DNA from: an uncultured bacterium
Lineage (GTDB): Bacteria > Patescibacteriota > Doudnabacteria > UBA920
DNA: 64,000 nucleotides
Reading direction: 5' to 3'
Assembly (NCBI GenBank): GCA_963749445.1
Contig: CAVVMJ010000010.1
Coordinates: 181,738 to 245,737, forward strand
Of the stretch, positions 27,213 through 62,172 are shown piece by piece; positions within the stretch are counted from its first letter, which is position 1; each line of letters opens with the position of its first letter. The translations under genes were made by a program, and so were the position numbers. The notes beneath the pieces are model-generated. The model made no database searches. It worked only from the letters and a program-made list of their open reading frames with translations, and had not been told where the DNA came from.

Positions 27213-27286
27213 CGGGATGTAGTATAGTGGTAGTACGCATGCATGGGGTGCATGTAGTCCGAGTCCGATTCTCGGCATCCCGACCA
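27213..27286 (+). tRNA. tRNA-Pro (anticodon GGG)
   Basis: Hand-folded cloverleaf: acceptor CGGGATG/CATCCCG with C1:G72, discriminator A73, D-arm GTAT-AGTGGTA-GTAC, anticodon arm CATGC-ATGGGGT-GCATG, T-arm CCGAG-TCCGATT-CTCGG, encoded CCA. Confidence 0.85.
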
Positions 27287-30711: not shown

Positions 30712-30840
30712 GCGGAGCTCCCCTCCTAATATAGGAGGGGTGTCCTGCGAAGCGGGACGGGGTGGTATTATCTGTGCCGGTATTTTACCACCTCCCCGCC
30801 CTGCGGGCGGTACTCCTCCTTTTCAGGAGGAGAGTACTGC
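30712..30840. repeat. R1 repeat B-spacer-A pair (gene-less)
   Basis: GCGGAGCTCCCCTCCTAATATAGGAGGGGTGTCCTGCGAAGCGGGACGGGGTGGTATTATCTGTGCCGGTATTTTACCACCTCCCCGCCCTGCGGGCGGTACTCCTCCTTTTCAGGAGGAGAGTACTGCAG. Confidence 0.85.
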
Positions 30841-30886
30841 AGCCGATAAATCGGCACGCTACACTAAAGCGTATGCCCCGCACAAG

Positions 30887-30970
30887 TGGTGGCCGAGGAG
30901 GGAGTCGAACCCTCATGCCGTTAAGCGCGCGCTCTTGAGGCGCGTGTGTCTGCCATTTCACCACTCGGCC
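30887..30970 (-). tRNA. tRNA-Leu (anticodon CAA), class II with long variable arm
   Basis: Hand-folded: GGCCGAG acceptor, D-arm GTG-AAATGGCAGA-CAC, anticodon arm CGCGC-CTCAAGA-GCGCG, 11-nt variable arm, T-arm GAGGG-TTCGACT-CCCTC, CCA encoded. Confidence 0.85.
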
Positions 30971-31120
30971 CCCATTTGTGCGGGGTAAATCTGCCAACTT
31001 GCCCCGACCTTGCGTCGGGGTTTCATCACTCCGGCGTAAAACAAATGTATTTTGGCTTATTTGATTATAGCAAACAATAAAAAAGGCGTAAAGTTTCACG
31101 CCTTTATCCATCAAATCAAA

Positions 31121-55872: not shown

Positions 55873-56241
55873 GTGAACAAGTCTTTGATGTTGTTGATTC
55901 CAGTCAGTGTAATCGCACTTTTGATTGCGCTGGCTTTTAGCGGCGTCGATTTCTCGGCAGTGCGGGTCTATGCTGCTCTACGGCCAGACAATACTGCCAA
56001 GGTCACCCTTCCTGGCAAATCTGCAACAACAGCCGCGGTGCGGGTGATCGATGGCGAGAGGGTAAGGCTCGAAATCAGGCAAGACGCCTGCGTCGAGTCC
56101 TTCCTCTATACTGACCAAGGGGAAAAACGCATATTGTCCCATGAGGGCGGAGAATGCGCTCCCGAAAGGGTCCCGATGGCCCGCCTGACGGGCTACATCC
56201 ACAGAATCAAAGAGACCATCTTTAACTCCGACAAGAAGTAG
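55873..56241 (+). CDS. hypothetical membrane-anchored protein (GTG start after AGGAGG), GC-rich
   Basis: VNKSLMLLIPVSVIALLIALAFSG TM anchor; GC content clearly above neighbours; followed by perfect 17-bp-stem hairpin TAGTCCCAATTTTAACG acc GTTAAAATTGGGACTA at 56327..56362. Confidence 0.45.
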   Translation: MNKSLMLLIPVSVIALLIALAFSGVDFSAVRVYAALRPDNTAKVTLPGKSATTAAVRVIDGERVRLEIRQDACVESFLYTDQGEKRILSHEGGECAPERVPMARLTGYIHRIKETIFNSDKK

Positions 56242-56474
56242 CCGGAGTTTGAGGGCCTGGGGCGACGACTGAATGCGAAAGCAAACAGTTGACGCCCCCG
56301 GCCCTCTTCAATTTGCCTAAATTTTTTAGTCCCAATTTTAACGACCGTTAAAATTGGGACTATTTGGAAATTAAATATTGCAAAAAATTTTCCACCGCGC
56401 TGTAGCCAGTCAATTTCTCAAACGATTTCAGCCCGATCCAACGGCTGACTTTCAAAGACATAAATCTGACTTAT

Positions 56475-57473
56475 CTATTCCATAGCCCTTAAAACCTCGG
56501 TATACATATCTTCCACTATTTTCTCCTGCTTTTTTCCCGTGAGCACGTAATGGTCAAGGCCGGGGGCGGCATTGGTTTCTAGGATGCAATATTTTTTTGG
56601 TTTTTCTTTTATGTCGCCGTCAATCAGCAAATCCACGCCGCACAGCCTAAGACCCATATCCCTAGTCAAGTTAATGGCCAGCTTTTTAAATTCCGGGTGG
56701 ACGTATTTTGTCACGTCAACCGAATCCCCACCGGAAGAAAGGTTGGCGTTATCCAAAAGAAAGACGCGCTGGTTTTTTTTAAGCACGCTGCGCATATTCA
56801 AACCCTGGCGCTTAAGCTTTTGCGCAATCCGAAAATCTTTGGGCTTAATTCTGGTGTCGCGGCTGGATGCGATAAACTCGGCCTGTTTGAGCGCGAGCAG
56901 TTTCCGGATTGTGGATTTTCCGTCCCCGACAATGTTTAACGGGATTCTTTGGTAAGCGGAAATTACCCGGTTGTCCAAAACCACCACGCGGTAATCTTTT
57001 CCCTGCATGACTTTTTGCACCAGGGCGACTTTGTCGCGCTCAAAAATAAAACGCATCGCCTTGTAAAATTCGCGTTTGTTGTAAACTTTGGAAACTCCGG
57101 TCCCTTGGCTGCCACTGTTGGGCTTAATAATTACCGGGAATCCCAATTTGCGGGCATAACGGTAAGCGGCGTGGATATCCCTCCGGGAACCAATGGCTTT
57201 TGACCACCGGTTGGAAAAAAATGTTTTCCCCAAAATAACCGGATAGCCCATCATTTTCATAAAAAAATTGGCAAAATCCTTGTCTTTGGAAATTTCCGAC
57301 GCCCCCAAAGGGTTTAAGTCCAGGCTGGAATACCTAAAATAGCGTTTTTTGCCGTTTTTAAAAATTATTTGCCCAACAATGTTCCACTGCGGCTCAAGCA
57401 CCACCCTGGCCCCGACCCTGGGAGCGATTTTTTTTAAAATGCGCCCCAAAAGAGGGCTGATTTGTTTTTTCAT
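56475..57473 (-). CDS. ATP-grasp domain protein (RimK / cyanophycin-synthetase-like ligase)
   Basis: 332 aa; VIIKPNSGSQGTGVS (ATP-grasp B loop), DYRVVVLDNRVISAYQR, ILETNAAPGLD C-terminal motif. Confidence 0.7.
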   Translation of the reverse strand: MKKQISPLLGRILKKIAPRVGARVVLEPQWNIVGQIIFKNGKKRYFRYSSLDLNPLGASEISKDKDFANFFMKMMGYPVILGKTFFSNRWSKAIGSRRDIHAAYRYARKLGFPVIIKPNSGSQGTGVSKVYNKREFYKAMRFIFERDKVALVQKVMQGKDYRVVVLDNRVISAYQRIPLNIVGDGKSTIRKLLALKQAEFIASSRDTRIKPKDFRIAQKLKRQGLNMRSVLKKNQRVFLLDNANLSSGGDSVDVTKYVHPEFKKLAINLTRDMGLRLCGVDLLIDGDIKEKPKKYCILETNAAPGLDHYVLTGKKQEKIVEDMYTEVLRAME

Positions 57474-57699
57474 GATTTAATTCTACCATATTTAATCCGG
57501 CTTTAAAATCTGTGATGATATGATGTCGCATAACGTTGAGCAGAAAACAAAATTTTTACGTTGTCGCAATAACCACAGTGGATACTGTGGATAACCATCA
57601 GGTCGCATAATGTAATAATGTGCTACGCTAAAAGCGTCGCACATTATGCCAATATTGCGCAACATTTACAATATCGCGCAATATTGGCCTTAGGAACTT

Positions 57700-58749
57700 A
57701 TGGAAAACCAAACAAAAACCCCCACTCCCCTGCGCAGGTTTATTAATGACTTTTTGGAATACTGCGAAATCGCTAAAAACCAAAGCTTAAACACCGTAAA
57801 AGCTTACGACAGGTATTTAAAAAAATTCGCCGCGTTTACCGCGACTTTAGGCATCAACGATCCAAAAAGCATTACTTTACAGGCCGTAAACAAATACCGG
57901 CTTTATTTAAACCGGCTGGAAAACGACAAAGGCAACAGTCTAAAATTAATTACTCAAAACTACCATCTTATAGCGCTGCGGGCATTTTTAAAATATTTAA
58001 TGAAAAATGACGTGGAAACATTAAGCCCGGAAAAAATTGAACTGCCGAAAAATCCCCAAAGGCAGGTGGAATTTTTGGAGGGCGACGAGTTAAAAAGGCT
58101 GTTTGACGCCACCGCGCGGGAAAACCAAGAACTCCCCCGCCTTAGGGACACCGCCATTTTGCACACGCTTTTTTCCACGGGCTTGCGCGTGTCCGAGCTG
58201 GCAGGCCTGCGTCGCGACAGCATTAACTTGGAACGCCGGGAATTTACGGTCCGCGGCAAGGGCAGCAAGTTGCGCCTGGTATTTTTAAGCGACGAAGCCG
58301 CGGAGGACATAAAAAAATATCTGGCCAAAAGGCCGGACAACAGCAAGGCTTTGTTTGTGGGCCATTCCATAATCGGCAAGGCAAAAAATCTGCCGGAAAA
58401 AAAGAATGACGAAAAATCGGTTGCCGCCAGGCAAAAACGCATGGAAAAAGAAATCCAAAGCCAAAATGACAATAACGACAAAAATAACAATAACAAAATC
58501 CCCGGATTAACCCCGCGGCAAATCCAGCGCATTATAAAAAAATACTGCCGCCTGGCCGGAATCGTAAAAAAGGTCACGCCCCACACTTTAAGACACTCAT
58601 TTGCCACCGATCTTTTGCAAAACGGCGCGGACATCCGCTCTGTGCAAAGCATGCTTGGGCATTCTTCAATCACGACCACACAGATATATACCCACGTGAC
58701 CAATGAAGGGCTACGGGATATTCATAGGAAATTCCATAATAAAAAATAG
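57700..58749 (+). CDS. tyrosine site-specific recombinase (XerC/XerD-like) with Asn/Lys-rich low-complexity insert
   Basis: N-terminal SAM-like core-binding domain; catalytic R..HxxR..Y: TPHTLRHSFATDLLQNGADIRSVQSMLGHSSITTTQIYTHV; upstream operator-like inverted repeats (AATATTGCGC aacatttacaatatc GCGCAATATT at 57650..57690). Confidence 0.8.
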   Translation: MENQTKTPTPLRRFINDFLEYCEIAKNQSLNTVKAYDRYLKKFAAFTATLGINDPKSITLQAVNKYRLYLNRLENDKGNSLKLITQNYHLIALRAFLKYLMKNDVETLSPEKIELPKNPQRQVEFLEGDELKRLFDATARENQELPRLRDTAILHTLFSTGLRVSELAGLRRDSINLERREFTVRGKGSKLRLVFLSDEAAEDIKKYLAKRPDNSKALFVGHSIIGKAKNLPEKKNDEKSVAARQKRMEKEIQSQNDNNDKNNNNKIPGLTPRQIQRIIKKYCRLAGIVKKVTPHTLRHSFATDLLQNGADIRSVQSMLGHSSITTTQIYTHVTNEGLRDIHRKFHNKK

Positions 58750-58812
58750 TGTCCATCCCGGCCGAGCCCAAGCATACAGGGCGAGAGACGGGACCCGAAA
58801 AAAAGCTTATAC

Positions 58813-58870
58813 CTGGATCCCGGATATTTTTACGGCTGATAATATTCAGGAACGTAAAAATTCCGGGATG
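58813..58870. repeat. R3 hairpin repeat copy downstream of recombinase gene
   Basis: GGATCCCGGATATTTTTACGGCTGATAATATTCAGGAACGTAAAAATTCCGGGATG. Confidence 0.75.
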
Positions 58871-58994
58871 ACAACTGAATATACGTCTGTATAAAACTAC
58901 CACTTTAAAAGCCCGTCTGGTTTTCCAAACGGGCTTTTAAGTTTGTTGACTCTTACTCATCTGTTTCTTATTACTGATTAATTATTGCCGATTA

Positions 58995-59168
58995 TCAAAT
59001 ATACCACTTATTCAAGCTCTGGCTACGCATGGCCTCCTCCATATTGACCTGGTATTCGCCTTGCGTATCCTTGGAATATTCGGTCAGCGGCTGGTCGCAG
59101 TGCGGGCAAATTCCGGGTTTGTCGCGTGAAAACCCGCAATTGTCGCACAAATACATGTGAAAATCCTG
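58995..59168 (-). CDS. small zinc-ribbon protein
   Basis: MQDFHMYLCDNCGFSRDKPGICPHCDQPL: CxxC...CxxC; track ORF extended upstream through non-coding sequence. Confidence 0.4.
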   Translation of the reverse strand, partial: QDFHMYLCDNCGFSRDKPGICPHCDQPLTEYSKDTQGEYQVNMEEAMRSQSLNKWYI

Positions 59169-59395
59169 CATAAACTTCACCTCCCTTTCGTCTACAAATA
59201 TTAATGATATAGCAGACGATCCGCCGAAGCCTGGCGAAGGCGGACAACCATGGCTATTCGACATTGTAGCCACTTGATTGTTAAAGAACCATCTACTTTT
59301 GGTTTAATACTTTTGCGTGTGATTGTCAAGCAGTTGGATTGCTGATATTTTTATGTTAATATTGATTAAGAATATCAAGAATTAAAAAGACACTC

Positions 59396-60430
59396 ATGAA
59401 AGCTACAATTTTTTACGGGCCACGGGACATTCGCGTGGAGGAAGTTCCGGATCCAAAAATTCAAAATCCCGACGAAGCGATTGTGCGCGTAACCTACGCC
59501 TGCATTTGCGGAAGCGACCTGTGGCCGTACCGTGGTTTGGTTAAGCGGGAGGCGCCCAGCCGCATTGGCCATGAATTTATGGGCATTGTGGAAAAAGTCG
59601 GGGCGGATGTCAAAAACGTCCGCGCCGGAAATTTAGTCGTGGCGCCTTTTCTTGCCGCGGACGGAACCTGTCCGGAATGTTTGGCCGGGATGTCCAGCGC
59701 CTGCAGAAACCGCAAAAGCTGGGGCATAGGCGGCTACGACGGCTGCCAGGGCGAAAAAATCCGCGTGCCTTTGGCTGACGGCACTTTGTTTAAAATTCCC
59801 AAAGGCGTTCCGGAAACGCTGGTGCCGGCCTTGTTGCCTTTGTCCGATGTTCTGTGCACCGGCCATCACGCCGCAATTTCCGCGGGCGTGGGCCCGGGCA
59901 AAACCGTTGCCGTAATCGGCGACGGCGCGGTCGGTTTGTGCGCCGTCGCGGCCAGCAAACGGCTGGGAGCCAAACAAATTATTTTAATCAGCACGCACCA
60001 AGACCGCGCCAAAGTCGGCAAAAAATTCGGCGCCACGGACATTGTGGCCGAACGCGAAGAAGCGGCCGCGGCTGCCATAAAAAAAATGACAGGTGATTTA
60101 GGCGTGGACTGCGCTTTGGAATGCGTGGGCCTGCCCGCTTCCTGGAAAACCGCGTTTTTGGCAGTGAGGCGCGGCGGCAACATCGGTTTTGTGGGCGTGC
60201 CGGTGGGCGTGCCGGATCTTGCGGTCAGAAATTTATTGGACAGCAACATTGGCGTCAAAGGCGGCATCGCGCCGGCGGCCACTTACATTCCCCAACTGAT
60301 GCCAGATGTGCTTTCCGGCAAGCTGGATGTCTCCGCCATTTTCACCAAAACCGTGGCCTTAAAAGACATCGCTCAAGGCTACCGCGCCATGGACGAACGC
60401 AAAGACATTAAAGTGCTGGTTAAGCCGTAA
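59396..60430 (+). CDS. zinc-dependent alcohol dehydrogenase family (MDR) oxidoreductase, GC-rich
   Basis: 344 aa; catalytic Zn site C.CGSD...H, structural Zn CPEC..G...C, Rossmann GDGAVG; GC about 58 percent versus about 48 percent locally. Confidence 0.85.
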   Translation: MKATIFYGPRDIRVEEVPDPKIQNPDEAIVRVTYACICGSDLWPYRGLVKREAPSRIGHEFMGIVEKVGADVKNVRAGNLVVAPFLAADGTCPECLAGMSSACRNRKSWGIGGYDGCQGEKIRVPLADGTLFKIPKGVPETLVPALLPLSDVLCTGHHAAISAGVGPGKTVAVIGDGAVGLCAVAASKRLGAKQIILISTHQDRAKVGKKFGATDIVAEREEAAAAAIKKMTGDLGVDCALECVGLPASWKTAFLAVRRGGNIGFVGVPVGVPDLAVRNLLDSNIGVKGGIAPAATYIPQLMPDVLSGKLDVSAIFTKTVALKDIAQGYRAMDERKDIKVLVKP

Positions 60431-60446
60431 AAATTGTAAACCAATC

Positions 60447-60490
60447 GAAAACTGCTCCGGCATTATGCCGGAGCAGTTTTATAAAAAAAT
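60447..60490 (+). terminator. intrinsic terminator after ADH gene
   Basis: AAAACTGCTCCGGCATTATGCCGGAGCAGTTTT ATAAAAAAATT. Confidence 0.75.
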
Positions 60491-60532: not shown

Positions 60533-60728
60533 TGGTGACCTCGGTTGGAATCGGACCAACATCAGCGCCTTATTATTAGAAAAGCGCTGCTCCCCGCCCG
60601 CCTGACTCGTCTGGTGATCTCGGTTGGAATCGAACCAACATCAGCGCCTTAGAAGAGCGCGGCTCTATCCATTGAGCTACGAGACCTCGTCAGGCGAGTC
60701 GGGCGGGTATCCATTGAGCTACGAGGCC
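60533..60728 (-). pseudogene. degenerate tRNA-Arg(TCT)-like gene split in its D-loop by an insertion carrying an intact tRNA-Arg(TCT)
   Basis: 5' part GGCCTCGTAGCTCAATGGATA (60728..60708) and 3' part GGGGAGCAGCGCTTTTCTAATAATAAGGCGCTGATGTTGGTCCGATTCCAACCGAGGTCACCA (60592..60533) would form acceptor, D, T and anticodon arms, with a 13-nt anticodon loop carrying an extra TAATAA. Confidence 0.45.
60612..60686 (-). tRNA. tRNA-Arg (anticodon TCT)
   Basis: Hand-folded: GGTCTCG acceptor, D-arm GCTC-AATGGAT-AGAGC, anticodon arm GCGCT-CTTCTAA-GGCGC, T-arm TTGGT-TCGATTC-CAACC, CCA encoded; flanked by inverted CCCGCCCG...CGGGCGGG. Confidence 0.85.
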
Positions 60729-60807
60729 ATTTATGAAAACAATTGACAATTAACGCATCATACAGCCGTTAATCGTTAACAGTAAATCGTTAATTGTAAT
60801 TTATTAA

Positions 60808-60883
60808 TGGTGATCCCGGCAGGAGTTGAACCTGCGACCTCAAGCTCCGCAAGCTTGCGCTCTATCCAGCTGAGCTACGGGAC
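60808..60883 (-). tRNA. tRNA-Arg (anticodon GCG as read from sequence)
   Basis: Hand-folded: GGTCCCG acceptor, D-arm GCTC-AGCTGGATA-GAGC, anticodon arm CAAGC-TTGCGGA-GCTTG, T-arm GCAGG-TTCAACT-CCTGC, discriminator A, CCA encoded. Confidence 0.8.
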
Positions 60884-60949
60884 CACGATTTGAAAAACCC
60901 GTCTAAAACTCTTTGATTTTACCATAAACCCTAAAAAAACTCAACCGGG

Positions 60950-61992: not shown

Positions 61993-62040
61993 AGTCGTAT
62001 TTTAAATGATAAATATTTGATTTTAATATAGATGCCATCC

Positions 62041-62172
62041 CGGAATTTTTCAAGCTTGAGGATGTTTTCAGTCTTGAAAAATATCCGGGATCCAGATTTT
62101 TGCTTCTACTGGATCCCGGATATTTTTTACGGCTGCTGATATCCCAACGCGTAAAAAATTCCGGGATGACAA
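62041..62172. repeat. R3 hairpin repeat, tandem pair
   Basis: CCGGAATTTTTCAAGCTTGAGGATGTTTTCAGTCTTGAAAAATATCCGGGATCCAGATTTTTGC...GGATCCCGGATATTTTTTACGGCTGCTGATATCCCAACGCGTAAAAAATTCCGGGATG. Confidence 0.75.

Follow-up and report, generated by a model that had tools for sequence, protein, structure and literature searches.

A tRNA-Arg gene cassette nested in a tRNA-Arg gene of Doudnabacteria and its relatives across Patescibacteria

RESULTS

A complete tRNA-Arg(TCT) gene lies within a degenerate tRNA-Arg(TCT) gene

Analysis of a 64-kb stretch of DNA from an uncultured Doudnabacteria bacterium (contig CAVVMJ010000010.1, positions 181,738 to 245,737; the whole stretch is called the window here) revealed a complete tRNA-Arg(TCT) gene positioned inside the D-loop-coding part of a second tRNA-Arg(TCT) gene on the minus strand. 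Read 5' to 3' on this strand, the locus begins with a 5' piece of the outer gene (GGCCTCGTAGCTCAATGGATA, 21 nt; 60708..60728), which comprises the acceptor 5' strand, the D-stem 5' strand, and the D-loop up to nucleotide 21 and pairs with the outer 3' piece in the predicted fold. It is followed by a left inverted repeat (L arm; CCCGCCCGACTCGCCTGACGA, 21 nt; 60687..60707), which is the 5' leader of the inner tRNA, by the complete inner tRNA-Arg(TCT) of 75 nt with its CCA encoded (60612..60686; ARAGORN, Rfam RF00005), and by a right inverted repeat (R arm; GACGAGTCAGGCGGGCGGG, 19 nt; 60593..60611), which pairs with L. The outer 3' piece (60 nt; 60533..60592) closes the locus and contains the D-stem 3' strand, the anticodon arm, the T arm, the acceptor 3' strand, and CCA. 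Outer pieces and arms were delimited by direct reading, which agreed base for base with the five-part layout described in an earlier note on this DNA. That note had also reported an inverted 8-mer shared by the two flanks; the 8-mer is present, but it underestimates the pairing, because the arms form 14 bp, with a single bulged A, in the predicted fold.

The earlier note had proposed to check the locus with a tRNA model. ARAGORN and Rfam confirmed the intact inner tRNA-Arg(TCT) and reported this gene alone at the locus. The inner gene scored 65.6 bits against RF00005 (E = 1.5e-13; gathering score, 29) and shows the 7-nt anticodon loop and the cloverleaf of a bacterial elongator tRNA. It is presumed to be the working gene.

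Joining of the outer halves gives a cloverleaf in which the acceptor, D, and T stems are perfectly paired and the anticodon loop has 13 nt (TTTCTAATAATAA; 60570..60582, minus strand; direct reading and comparison with the related contig L072). In this loop, TAA is present three times and C32 is replaced by T. Even with the insert removed, the outer gene lacks the 7-nt anticodon loop of a functional tRNA; deletion of 6 nt (TAATAA) from the loop was sufficient for ARAGORN to call a tRNA-Arg(TCT). The intact inner tRNA of L072 matches the outer copy at every position outside the anticodon loop. The enlarged loop is the defect by which the outer copy is recognized as a pseudogene. The degenerate outer copy with paired acceptor strands that had been described before was recovered in the joined halves. 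Since pair 3-70 is C-G outside and T-A inside, the two outer pieces represent one gene distinct from the inner one.

Removal of L through R restores the sequence GGATA/GAGC with zero duplicated bases. The insert comprises 115 bp, 75 of which are tRNA; its ends are inverted repeats, and it contains no open reading frame (ORF). The L arm is unique in the window when 3 mismatches are tolerated, and CCCGCCCG occurs there a single time. The 15-mer GTAGCTCAATGGATA, which is common to both 5' parts, has 2 occurrences in the window versus 0.06 expected. Given this repeated 15-mer and the unique L arm, chance does not explain the structure of the locus.

The predicted fold joins the outer halves but lacks splicing motifs

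The 196-nt RNA is predicted to adopt the nested design in its minimum-energy fold (z = -3.96 versus shuffles). In this fold, the 5' junction lies in a large asymmetric loop, and the 3' junction lies between two stacked helices with no bulge; a bulge-helix-bulge motif (two 3-nt bulges, 4-bp helix) was not found at the junctions. A promoter-like site (TTTACT, 18 nt, TATGAT; 60757..60786, minus strand), identified as a consensus match only, is positioned 29 nt upstream of the outer 5' end. A strong intrinsic-terminator-like hairpin of 15 pairs with a T-rich tail (60448..60480, minus strand) is positioned 53 nt downstream of the outer 3' end.

Searches with Rfam at permissive thresholds, covering the locus, the whole window, hairpin-class loci, and loci with GIY-YIG nuclease genes (see below), returned tRNA matches alone and no intron, ribozyme, or repeat family. 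A group I or group II intron ribozyme core was not detected by Rfam in the locus, the window, or related loci, and the insert of 115 nt is below the approximately 200 nt expected. The sequence CUGACGA at the end of L was considered as part of a hammerhead and this candidate was rejected: only 4 of 35 L arms have the GA, and the would-be stem II is not followed by GAA.

These data bear on the view that L-tRNA-R is an intron-like sequence cut from a precursor RNA, from which RNase P and 3' processing would free the inner tRNA, with the outer halves ligated or held together by the helix as a split tRNA, so that both tRNAs function. The fold itself speaks for such a route, as it joins the outer halves and lets the long L/R helix emerge at 21/22, in the variable part of the D-loop. 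Against it stand the junctions without bulge-helix-bulge and the absence of any intron family in the Rfam searches. We know of no bacterial enzyme system for such splicing.

The cassette recurs in Patescibacteria

One genome per prokaryotic species was scanned for a tRNA 5' fragment followed, after 15 to 45 nt, by the same 5' part entering the D-stem; the pattern left the arms unspecified. The scan yielded nine loci. Five of them belong to Patescibacteria metagenome-assembled genomes (MAGs) labelled Saccharibacteria, Doudnabacteria, or Patescibacteria group, and in each of them a complete tRNA-Arg, flanked by the same L and R arms, stands within an older tRNA-Arg.

A 21- to 26-nt tRNA 5' fragment 15 to 45 nt before a complete tRNA was also seen in L001, L006, L008, and L009 (Chloroflexia, a gammaproteobacterium, and one Patescibacteria MAG). 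The spacers of these four loci are unrelated, and L008 has an additional downstream 16-nt 3' fragment. Partial tRNA duplications of other origin therefore exist.

Metagenome contigs were then searched with the first 18 nt of L, and the matches listed were pooled with the genome-scan loci and the window, so that the counts are lower bounds. In public Patescibacteria contigs, at least 40 sites show L (first 18 nt) followed by tRNA-Arg inside an older tRNA-Arg. An intact tRNA directly follows L in at least 35 sites (31 distinct sequences), and among the matches listed it is always tRNA-Arg, with the inner anticodons CCT (15), TCT (12), CCG (4), TCG (3), and GCG (1) in the 35 listed. The insertion is located at D-loop position 21/22 in at least 29 sites (...GGATA/L...R/GAGC or GAAC) and at anticodon-loop position 35/36, where it splits the anticodon, in at least 7 sites (...CTTC/L...R/TAAGC). 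Inner and outer anticodons agree in 9 of the 9 listed outer copies that can be rejoined and read. Among the matches listed, no L arm precedes a tRNA outside an older tRNA-Arg remnant. Nests three deep were found in L026, L117, and L030. BLAST of the 196-nt locus against phage and plasmid collections matched the tRNA body alone, and a scan of viral contigs for the L arm revealed one stand-alone hairpin and zero cassettes.

The earlier note had suggested a comparison with relatives; the syntenic loci in L052, L072, L005, and L002 show the same architecture. A collapse or chimeric joining of two tandem tRNA genes during assembly, to which nothing more than the repeated sequence itself points, is ruled out for practical purposes because the same arms and architecture are present in dozens of contigs from unrelated projects and assemblers, including these four syntenic ones; moreover, the inner and outer copies differ at several positions.

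The outer copies decay while the inner tRNA is kept

Among the matches listed, 28 sites have both arms, and at only 9 of these did the rejoined outer halves give an intact tRNA-Arg, which in every case had the anticodon of the inner gene. The remaining outer copies have disrupted acceptor stems, lack the 3' half, or contain additional small GC-rich hairpins in the D, T, or anticodon loops. Within the orthologous group formed by L024, L074, L053, L037, and L107, comparison of L024 with L053 revealed 0 differences in the 73-nt inner tRNA and approximately 11 differences in 78 positions of the outer 3' piece (counted from the alignment). In 8 of the 31 distinct loci among the matches listed, the R arm and the outer 3' half are jointly missing while the inner tRNA is intact, which indicates that both are dispensable for the inner gene. 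The outer copies are mostly decayed, unmaintained relics.

For the same reason, excision at the RNA level with two functional products seems improbable. The 13-nt anticodon loop of the outer copy in the window, the predominance of interrupted, mismatched, or truncated outer copies elsewhere, the seven listed cassettes that split the anticodon itself, and the 8 of 31 loci lacking the R arm together with the outer 3' half all argue against the intron-like reading offered in the earlier note, and they add to the missing splicing motifs described above. Nine outer copies elsewhere that are intact once the cassette is removed would fit it, as would the confinement of hairpins and cassettes to loop-coding positions and the frame-breaking hairpins (F1) in a conserved transposase gene described below, which hint at removal.

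Allele combinations suggest invasion rather than local duplication

A tRNA-Arg(GCG) gene (60808..60884, minus strand; ARAGORN, Rfam) adjoins the nested locus. It is un-nested in the window and in L052, where it represents an empty site, because its orthologue in L072 is nested with the same L/R cassette. The outer copy of the L072 GCG nest matches the un-nested allele of L052. Two acceptor pairs of the inner copy show compensatory changes, and its T loop is also different. The TCT lineage contains three allele types, which are found inside or outside in varying combinations. In L052, the outer 5' and 3' pieces are of different allele types, as expected if multilayer nests collapse by recombination between L, R, or tRNA repeats. 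Two CCT alleles are nested in both orders (L057 versus L024, L053, and L074). In L143, a restored tRNA-Lys stands beside a GIY-YIG gene: its 5' acceptor strand GGGAACG mismatches its own 3' strand CCATCCC, and the displaced upstream 5' remnant GGGATGG pairs perfectly with this CCATCCC. A foreign 5' part therefore appears to have been joined to a resident 3' part. Compensatory differences between inner and outer copies were also considered as a general proof of two once-functional genes. This argument was dropped, since the changes could have arisen in the inner copy alone, and it was retained only where sister genomes give polarity.

The arms themselves could be taken as evidence that no mobile element is involved: a local duplication, once or a few times, may have spread among arginine isoacceptors and lineages by recombination or gene conversion, with the L/R helix serving as a processing stem of the RNA or as a folding clamp against mispairing of inner and outer halves. 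The arms are almost invariant, and their predicted 14-bp helix is stable. Inner and outer genes always have the same anticodon and often carry the same D-arm signatures specific to their lineage, no outer 3' half was seen without R, and the nests have solely housekeeping genes as neighbors. A clamp, however, needs complementarity and not a fixed sequence, and no covariation between L and R was seen. Reciprocal nesting, the foreign inner copy of L072, and the chimeric acceptor stems all appear to require invasion, and the same L arm with a related right end bounds nuclease genes and stand-alone hairpins in non-tRNA contexts. We consider duplication without a mobile element unlikely. The possibility raised first in the earlier note, a tRNA-carrying insertion into a tRNA gene, is instead backed by the recurrent cassette, the filled and empty sites, the reciprocal and multilevel nesting, and the decaying outer copies.

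The arms are nearly invariant and occur in other settings

The R 16-mer, which was unconstrained in the search, is identical in 19 of the 23 listed loci that keep the R arm. Pairwise identities among the 31 enclosed tRNAs range from 0.53 to 0.99, with a median of 0.71. Because the enclosed tRNAs have diverged to this extent, recency is ruled out as the cause of the invariant arms. The near-invariance suggests sequence-specific recognition, re-templating, or a role of the arms at the RNA level.

The 18-nt start of L also opens stand-alone palindromes of 39 to 41 nt, e.g., CCCGCCCGACTCGCCTGAGCGAGAGCGATGGCGGGCAGG. Palindromes of this type are located in non-tRNA DNA; they often interrupt the loop of a further hairpin, and some are nested within one another. 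In addition, the 18-nt start of L is the left end of elements of approximately 430 nt, which have the right end ...GATGGCGG(G/A)CGGG and carry a gene for a GIY-YIG nuclease of 85 amino acids (aa). The L 18-mer and the right end ...GATGGCGGGCGGG bound GIY-YIG ORFs in L047, L071, L111, and L113, and the GIY-YIG element of L058 has the variant left end CCCGCCCGCCTCGCCTGA. The arm family therefore exists in three states: empty, nuclease carrying, and tRNA-Arg carrying. The nucleotides preceding L vary by site (GGATA, CTTC, CTGC, AATACG, and others).

Intergenic elements of the L/R family in L058, L010, L119, and L015, with or without a nuclease gene, are flanked by direct repeats of 6 to 9 bp (CACAGA, CCGTTGAAC, AACAAAC). 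Unlike these intergenic copies, the tRNA nests have no flanking direct repeats, a difference that suggests at least two modes of insertion.

A Y1 (IS200/RAYT-like) transposase gene is present in L047, L071, L111, and L113, with intact copies in L099 and L128. The interrupted gene is split exactly between N and H of the HUH motif by a GIY-YIG element with L/R-type arms and is also broken by 41-nt frame-shifting hairpins, the positions of which differ between contigs. Its exons show dN/dS values of 0.05 to 0.12, with dS saturated. These data can be read either as constant re-invasion of copies or as removal of the insertions.

The clustering of the arm family in and around this Y1_Tnp gene raises the question of whether the arms are REP/REPIN-like hairpin ends that a Y1 (HUH) transposase of the IS200/RAYT type moves as single-stranded DNA, with tRNA and GIY-YIG genes as cargo. 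Such a mechanism would account for a target that is not duplicated and is exactly restored on removal, and for the stand-alone hairpins of this family that occupy loops of other hairpins. It is difficult to reconcile with the lack of a conserved 4- to 5-nt target before the left end (...GGATA, ...CTTC, ...AATACG, others), with the pairing of L with R in place of a separate hairpin at each end, and with the direct repeats of 7 to 9 bp at some intergenic copies. Furthermore, tblastn revealed no Y1 gene in the window or in any of the Patescibacteria loci. Transposition by a Y1 enzyme is accordingly rated as a rather unlikely origin of the cassette.

Small GIY-YIG nuclease genes lie in interrupted tRNA genes beside complete copies

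The GIY-YIG family (Pfam PF01541) was confirmed for the ORFs of L111, L029, and L079, and the assignment was precomputed for the database homologues. GIY-YIG ORFs were found inside tRNA nests in L029, L040, and L079/L093. In L029, the ORF is located in the T loop of the tRNA that follows the L arm, and a complete tRNA-Arg(TCG) stands after the ORF. The order in L040 is 13 nt of tRNA-Leu, hairpins including CCCTGCAC..GTGCGGGG, the ORF, and a complete tRNA-Leu; in L079/L093, a CCG nest has the ORF in its outer 3' half.

At E <= 1e-8, 443 relatives of the 82-aa protein of L029 were found in a database search. The 120 of these that were listed are mostly 82 to 110 aa in length, and the named ones mostly belong to candidate phyla of the Patescibacteria radiation. 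The contexts of eight further homologues, which include two pairs of orthologous loci, were inspected, and all eight are located in tRNA-Lys, tRNA-Arg, tRNA-Ala, or tRNA-Ser genes with a complete copy alongside. Seven contexts have the same order: the 5' part of the old tRNA, two tandem hairpins (e.g., CCCTGTCATGCGACAGGGCG CCCTATCGAATGATAGGGCG), the GIY-YIG ORF, and the same tRNA once more as a complete gene. L141, the eighth context, has the complete tRNA upstream of the ORF and decayed copies downstream. The interrupted sites are the T loop of tRNA-Lys and positions in tRNA-Arg, tRNA-Ala, and tRNA-Ser (35/36). The group I intron model gave no match in the regions of the GIY-YIG homologues. 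The nuclease-bearing loci follow the same logic as the locus in the window: a tRNA gene is broken at a conserved loop-coding position, and a replacement is supplied.

Most of the loci L029, L131, L135, and L138 to L143 have two tandem hairpins with 7-bp stems, each followed by CG, before the nuclease gene. In L141, single hairpins of this type are present inside the decayed tRNA copies downstream of the ORF. Between lineages, the stems of these hairpins covary (CCCTGTC/GACAGGG, CCCTATC/GATAGGG, CCCCGTC/GACGGGG, CCATGTC/GACATGG, and CACGGTC/GACCGTG), and the loops are similar. The twin hairpins look like an element recognized at the protein or RNA level.

A GIY-YIG gene is absent from the window (tblastn, no match at E < 1).

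All hairpin-bounded elements, i.e., those with L/R arms, those of the CCCCGCAC family described below, and the twin hairpins, might alternatively be a new class of ribozyme-less intervening sequences that are removed from RNA or precisely from DNA. The young outer halves and the Y1 gene would then stay functional, and the window would contain a tRNA within the intervening sequence of another tRNA. The low dN/dS of Y1 exons that are nevertheless broken by frame-breaking hairpins agrees with removal; we still think that neither this general form nor its consequence for the window has much chance of being correct.

A second nest and further hairpins in the window

A second nest is located at 30775..31035 (minus strand), where a complete inner tRNA-Leu(CAA) (30970-30887, minus strand) stands in a decayed tRNA-Leu-like gene, just before the outer D-stem 3' strand. 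Its arms, CCCCGCACAA within 30985-30971 and TTGTGCGGGG at 30886-30876 (minus strand), differ from L and R of the tRNA-Arg nest. The decayed outer gene contains three more small GC-rich hairpins (CCCCGACGCAAGGTCGGGG, GTACTCTCCTCCTGAAAAGGAGGAGTAC, and CCGCCCGCAGGGCGG); its anticodon loop reads TTTAGTGTA and possibly once held a TAG anticodon. The arm core CCCCGCAC..GTGCGGGG of the tRNA-Leu nest also bounds a T-loop insertion in L026, the cargo of which is another tRNA-Arg, and the variant CCTCGCAC..GTGCGGGG bounds a T-loop insertion in L005 with AT-rich non-tRNA sequence as cargo. Neither this nest nor the membership of the tRNA-Arg locus in a phylum-wide family was contained in the earlier note.

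An intergenic cluster of small hairpins is located at 2190-2330 of the window (TCCCCTCTCC..GGAGAGGG, GTCCCGACTAAAGTCGGGAC, and TCTCCCCATTAAATGGGGAGA). The middle hairpin is of the CCCGAC..GTCGGG type, as inserted in outer tRNA D-loops of related contigs.

Two features of the tRNA genes were also recorded. The tRNA-Arg at 60808-60884, which is found in L052 and, nested, in L072 as well, has the anticodon GCG where ACG is usual in bacteria. The T loop TCCGATT, in which C replaces the normally universal U55, is present in tRNA-Pro GGG (27213-27286), in the outer piece at 60533-60592, and in the inner tRNAs of L052 and L072. The tRNA-Pro GGG and the inner tRNAs of L052 and L072 look like working copies, and the inner tRNA-Arg of the window keeps the usual TTCGATT.

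The neighboring recombinase is of the Xer type

A recombinase gene of the Phage_integrase family (57700-58749) is present near the locus, as the earlier note had pointed out, but it ends 1.78 kb from the locus and not 1.9 kb. The protein scores as XerC, XerD, and XerA type (238, 237, and 235 bits), with the XerA-type score above the model cutoff. Homologues of the recombinase, a zinc-ribbon protein, a DUF2157 protein, a pseudouridine synthase, and one unnamed ORF occur in matching order in L002, L005, or L072, and the recombinase is 68 to 83% identical to its homologues in these three contigs. This synteny assigns the organism of the window to Patescibacteria. Homologues of the recombinase adjoin the tRNA-Arg(TCT) nest in L002, L005, L072, L105, and L125; nests of other isoacceptors have no such neighbor.

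The proximity of this gene, together with the five contigs in which a homologue stands beside the TCT nest, is what supports the third possibility raised in the earlier note, a scar of integration or excision by a tyrosine recombinase with duplicated attachment sites. The Xer-type scores, the conserved gene order, and the nests of other isoacceptors without such a neighbor speak against it. The insert also does not resemble the products of tyrosine integrases: an integrative element would have its own integrase and direct repeats of a tRNA part, and the 115-bp insert has no ORF, ends in inverted instead of direct repeats, and has no duplicated core. We therefore hold an integrase scar to be highly improbable.

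Clustering of the ORFs around 39 nest loci did not reveal a dedicated enzyme, and the recombinase cluster was of the Xer type. The ORF families common to the largest number of nest loci look RmuC-like, DNA polymerase III delta-like, O-antigen-ligase-like, and ribosomal protein S15-like, as assigned by reading the sequences without a family search.

At approximately 56000-60000 of the window, the GC skew flattens, and the AT skew changes sign near 56 to 58 kb. A palindrome at 57648-57688, just upstream of the Xer-type gene, contains a 19-nt near-perfect inverted repeat (GCCAATATTGCGCAACATT / AATATCGCGCAATATTGGC). The region of approximately 56 to 60 kb may represent a terminus of replication that includes a dif-like site. 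A 63-nt inverted repeat with 79% complementarity and a 13-nt spacer lies at 62033-62171, between the DUF2157 gene and the ORF that follows it, and contains the motifs ATCCCGGA / TCCGGGAT.

DISCUSSION

The recurrent cassettes point to an undescribed kind of selfish DNA, which breaks a tRNA gene and brings its own replacement. For the locus in the window, we consider it probable, with moderate confidence, that a cassette of approximately 115 bp was inserted at the DNA level at position 21/22, that the inner gene works while the outer gene decays, and that the cassette is an ORF-less member of a GIY-YIG-encoding, target-replacing selfish family.

According to this proposal, a cassette consisting of the L arm, a complete tRNA-Arg(UCU), and the R arm would enter a resident tRNA-Arg(UCU) gene at the exact junction of nucleotides 21 and 22. 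Transcription would start upstream of the outer 5' piece and end at the terminator, and RNase P and 3' trimming would free the inner tRNA for decoding. The outer halves would no longer be needed and would persist as a decaying leader and trailer, in this case with an anticodon loop that has grown to 13 nt. The tRNA genes of these small genomes are presumably single copy, and an element that breaks such a gene would survive only if it carried a substitute for the lost isoacceptor. This substitute would itself be a new insertion target, so that re-invasion could follow and give rise to Russian-doll loci, which might later collapse by recombination between the repeated pieces. The most likely generator would be a selfish element of the homing-nuclease type, and the cassette of the window may be a form that has lost its ORF or moves in trans. 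A GIY-YIG nuclease is proposed because elements with the same L arm and a related right end carry the 85-aa GIY-YIG gene and because relatives of its 82-aa Patescibacteria homologue reside inside tRNA genes, next to a restored copy of the tRNA.

Several observations weigh against this explanation. No GIY-YIG, Y1 transposase, or other candidate enzyme gene is present in the 64-kb window, and the link between the arms of the window and GIY-YIG rests on elements in non-tRNA contexts. The GIY-YIG cassettes of Patescibacteria carry hairpins other than L/R. The GIY-YIG protein of 82 to 95 aa has no obvious DNA-binding domain, and the restored target stays susceptible to cleavage, an uncommon situation for homing elements. 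Simple homing also does not explain why the arms are nearly invariant while the enclosed tRNAs share a median identity of 71%. Finally, the mobility of the cassette is inferred from comparisons of sequences, and the polymorphism of filled and empty sites could partly reflect loss via recombination between repeats.

If the proposal is true, the smallest known bacterial genomes host a selfish element of unusual strategy, which invades an essential, presumably single-copy tRNA gene at conserved loop-coding positions and is tolerable by virtue of the replacement it brings. The element would explain the Russian-doll tRNA loci and stray tRNA halves of Patescibacteria. It would provide a route by which foreign tRNA alleles displace resident ones, so that the histories of tRNA genes become separable from that of the genome. 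The very abundant 82- to 106-aa "GIY-YIG nuclease family proteins" of Patescibacteria would acquire a testable genomic role, and a bacterial comparison would be available for the origin of split, permuted, and intron-containing tRNA genes. The nearly invariant arms of 19 to 21 nt imply a recognition partner. Annotation of tRNAs is also led astray by the nests, since standard finders detect the inner gene alone.

Among described systems, the closest relative is segB of phage T4, a free-standing GIY-YIG gene in a tRNA cluster which drives the inheritance of that region (PMC2330249). Both systems have a GIY-YIG gene among or inside tRNA genes, co-inherited flanking tRNA sequence, and a gene-conversion logic, and related ORFs of Patescibacteria stand beside a restored tRNA. 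SegB differs in that its gene lies between intact tRNA genes without nested remnants. The proteins described here, in contrast, have 82 to 106 aa with little beyond the catalytic domain and are associated with palindromic ends or twin hairpins, and the cassette of the window has no ORF.

Phages, integrative and conjugative elements, and genomic islands likewise insert into an essential tRNA gene, reconstitute it from the element, and leave a partial duplicate. These elements span kilobases, encode a tyrosine integrase, usually replace only the 3' part of the gene, and have direct repeats at distant ends, whereas the insert described here has approximately 115 bp, contains a whole tRNA, is bounded by inverted repeats, lies in the D-loop, and is touched by both old halves. 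REP/REPIN-RAYT systems, miniature inverted-repeat transposable elements (MITEs), and Rickettsia palindromic elements resemble the arm family in their short GC-rich inverted repeats, in ORF-less dispersed copies even within genes, and in mutual nesting. Terminal inverted repeats on a short element are a further likeness to MITE and REP sequences (14 bp in L/R; 39 to 41 nt in the stand-alone hairpins). Unlike those sequences, the arm family has a single copy in the 64 kb of the window, and its tRNA nests have no target duplication. To our knowledge, none of these families carries a tRNA gene or targets tRNA loop-coding sequences.

Disrupted tRNAs of archaea and algae share with the locus a noncanonical position in the D-loop region and GC-rich complementary sequences that join the halves; mobile tRNA introns have been proposed in archaea (summarized in PMC10714607). 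The locus described here differs in that it is bacterial, has no bulge-helix-bulge, contains an interrupted copy that is decaying, and has a complete tRNA of the same isoacceptor as the insert. In Patescibacteria, self-splicing group I introns of 184 to 894 nt are known from tRNA genes, including position 35/36, and some have homing endonuclease genes (PMC13011429); the survey of these introns describes no arrangement like the one seen here. The phylum and the interruption of tRNA genes, including at 35/36, are thus common to both. The introns reside in otherwise intact genes, whereas no ribozyme is present here, the insert is too short, and the gene is replaced and not spliced. In the literature that we searched, neither nested tRNA genes bounded by conserved inverted-repeat arms nor a replacement of tRNA genes by GIY-YIG cassettes in Patescibacteria had been described. 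The principle that selfish DNA targets and restores a tRNA gene is known; the anatomy, the scale, and the recursion of the nests are unusual.

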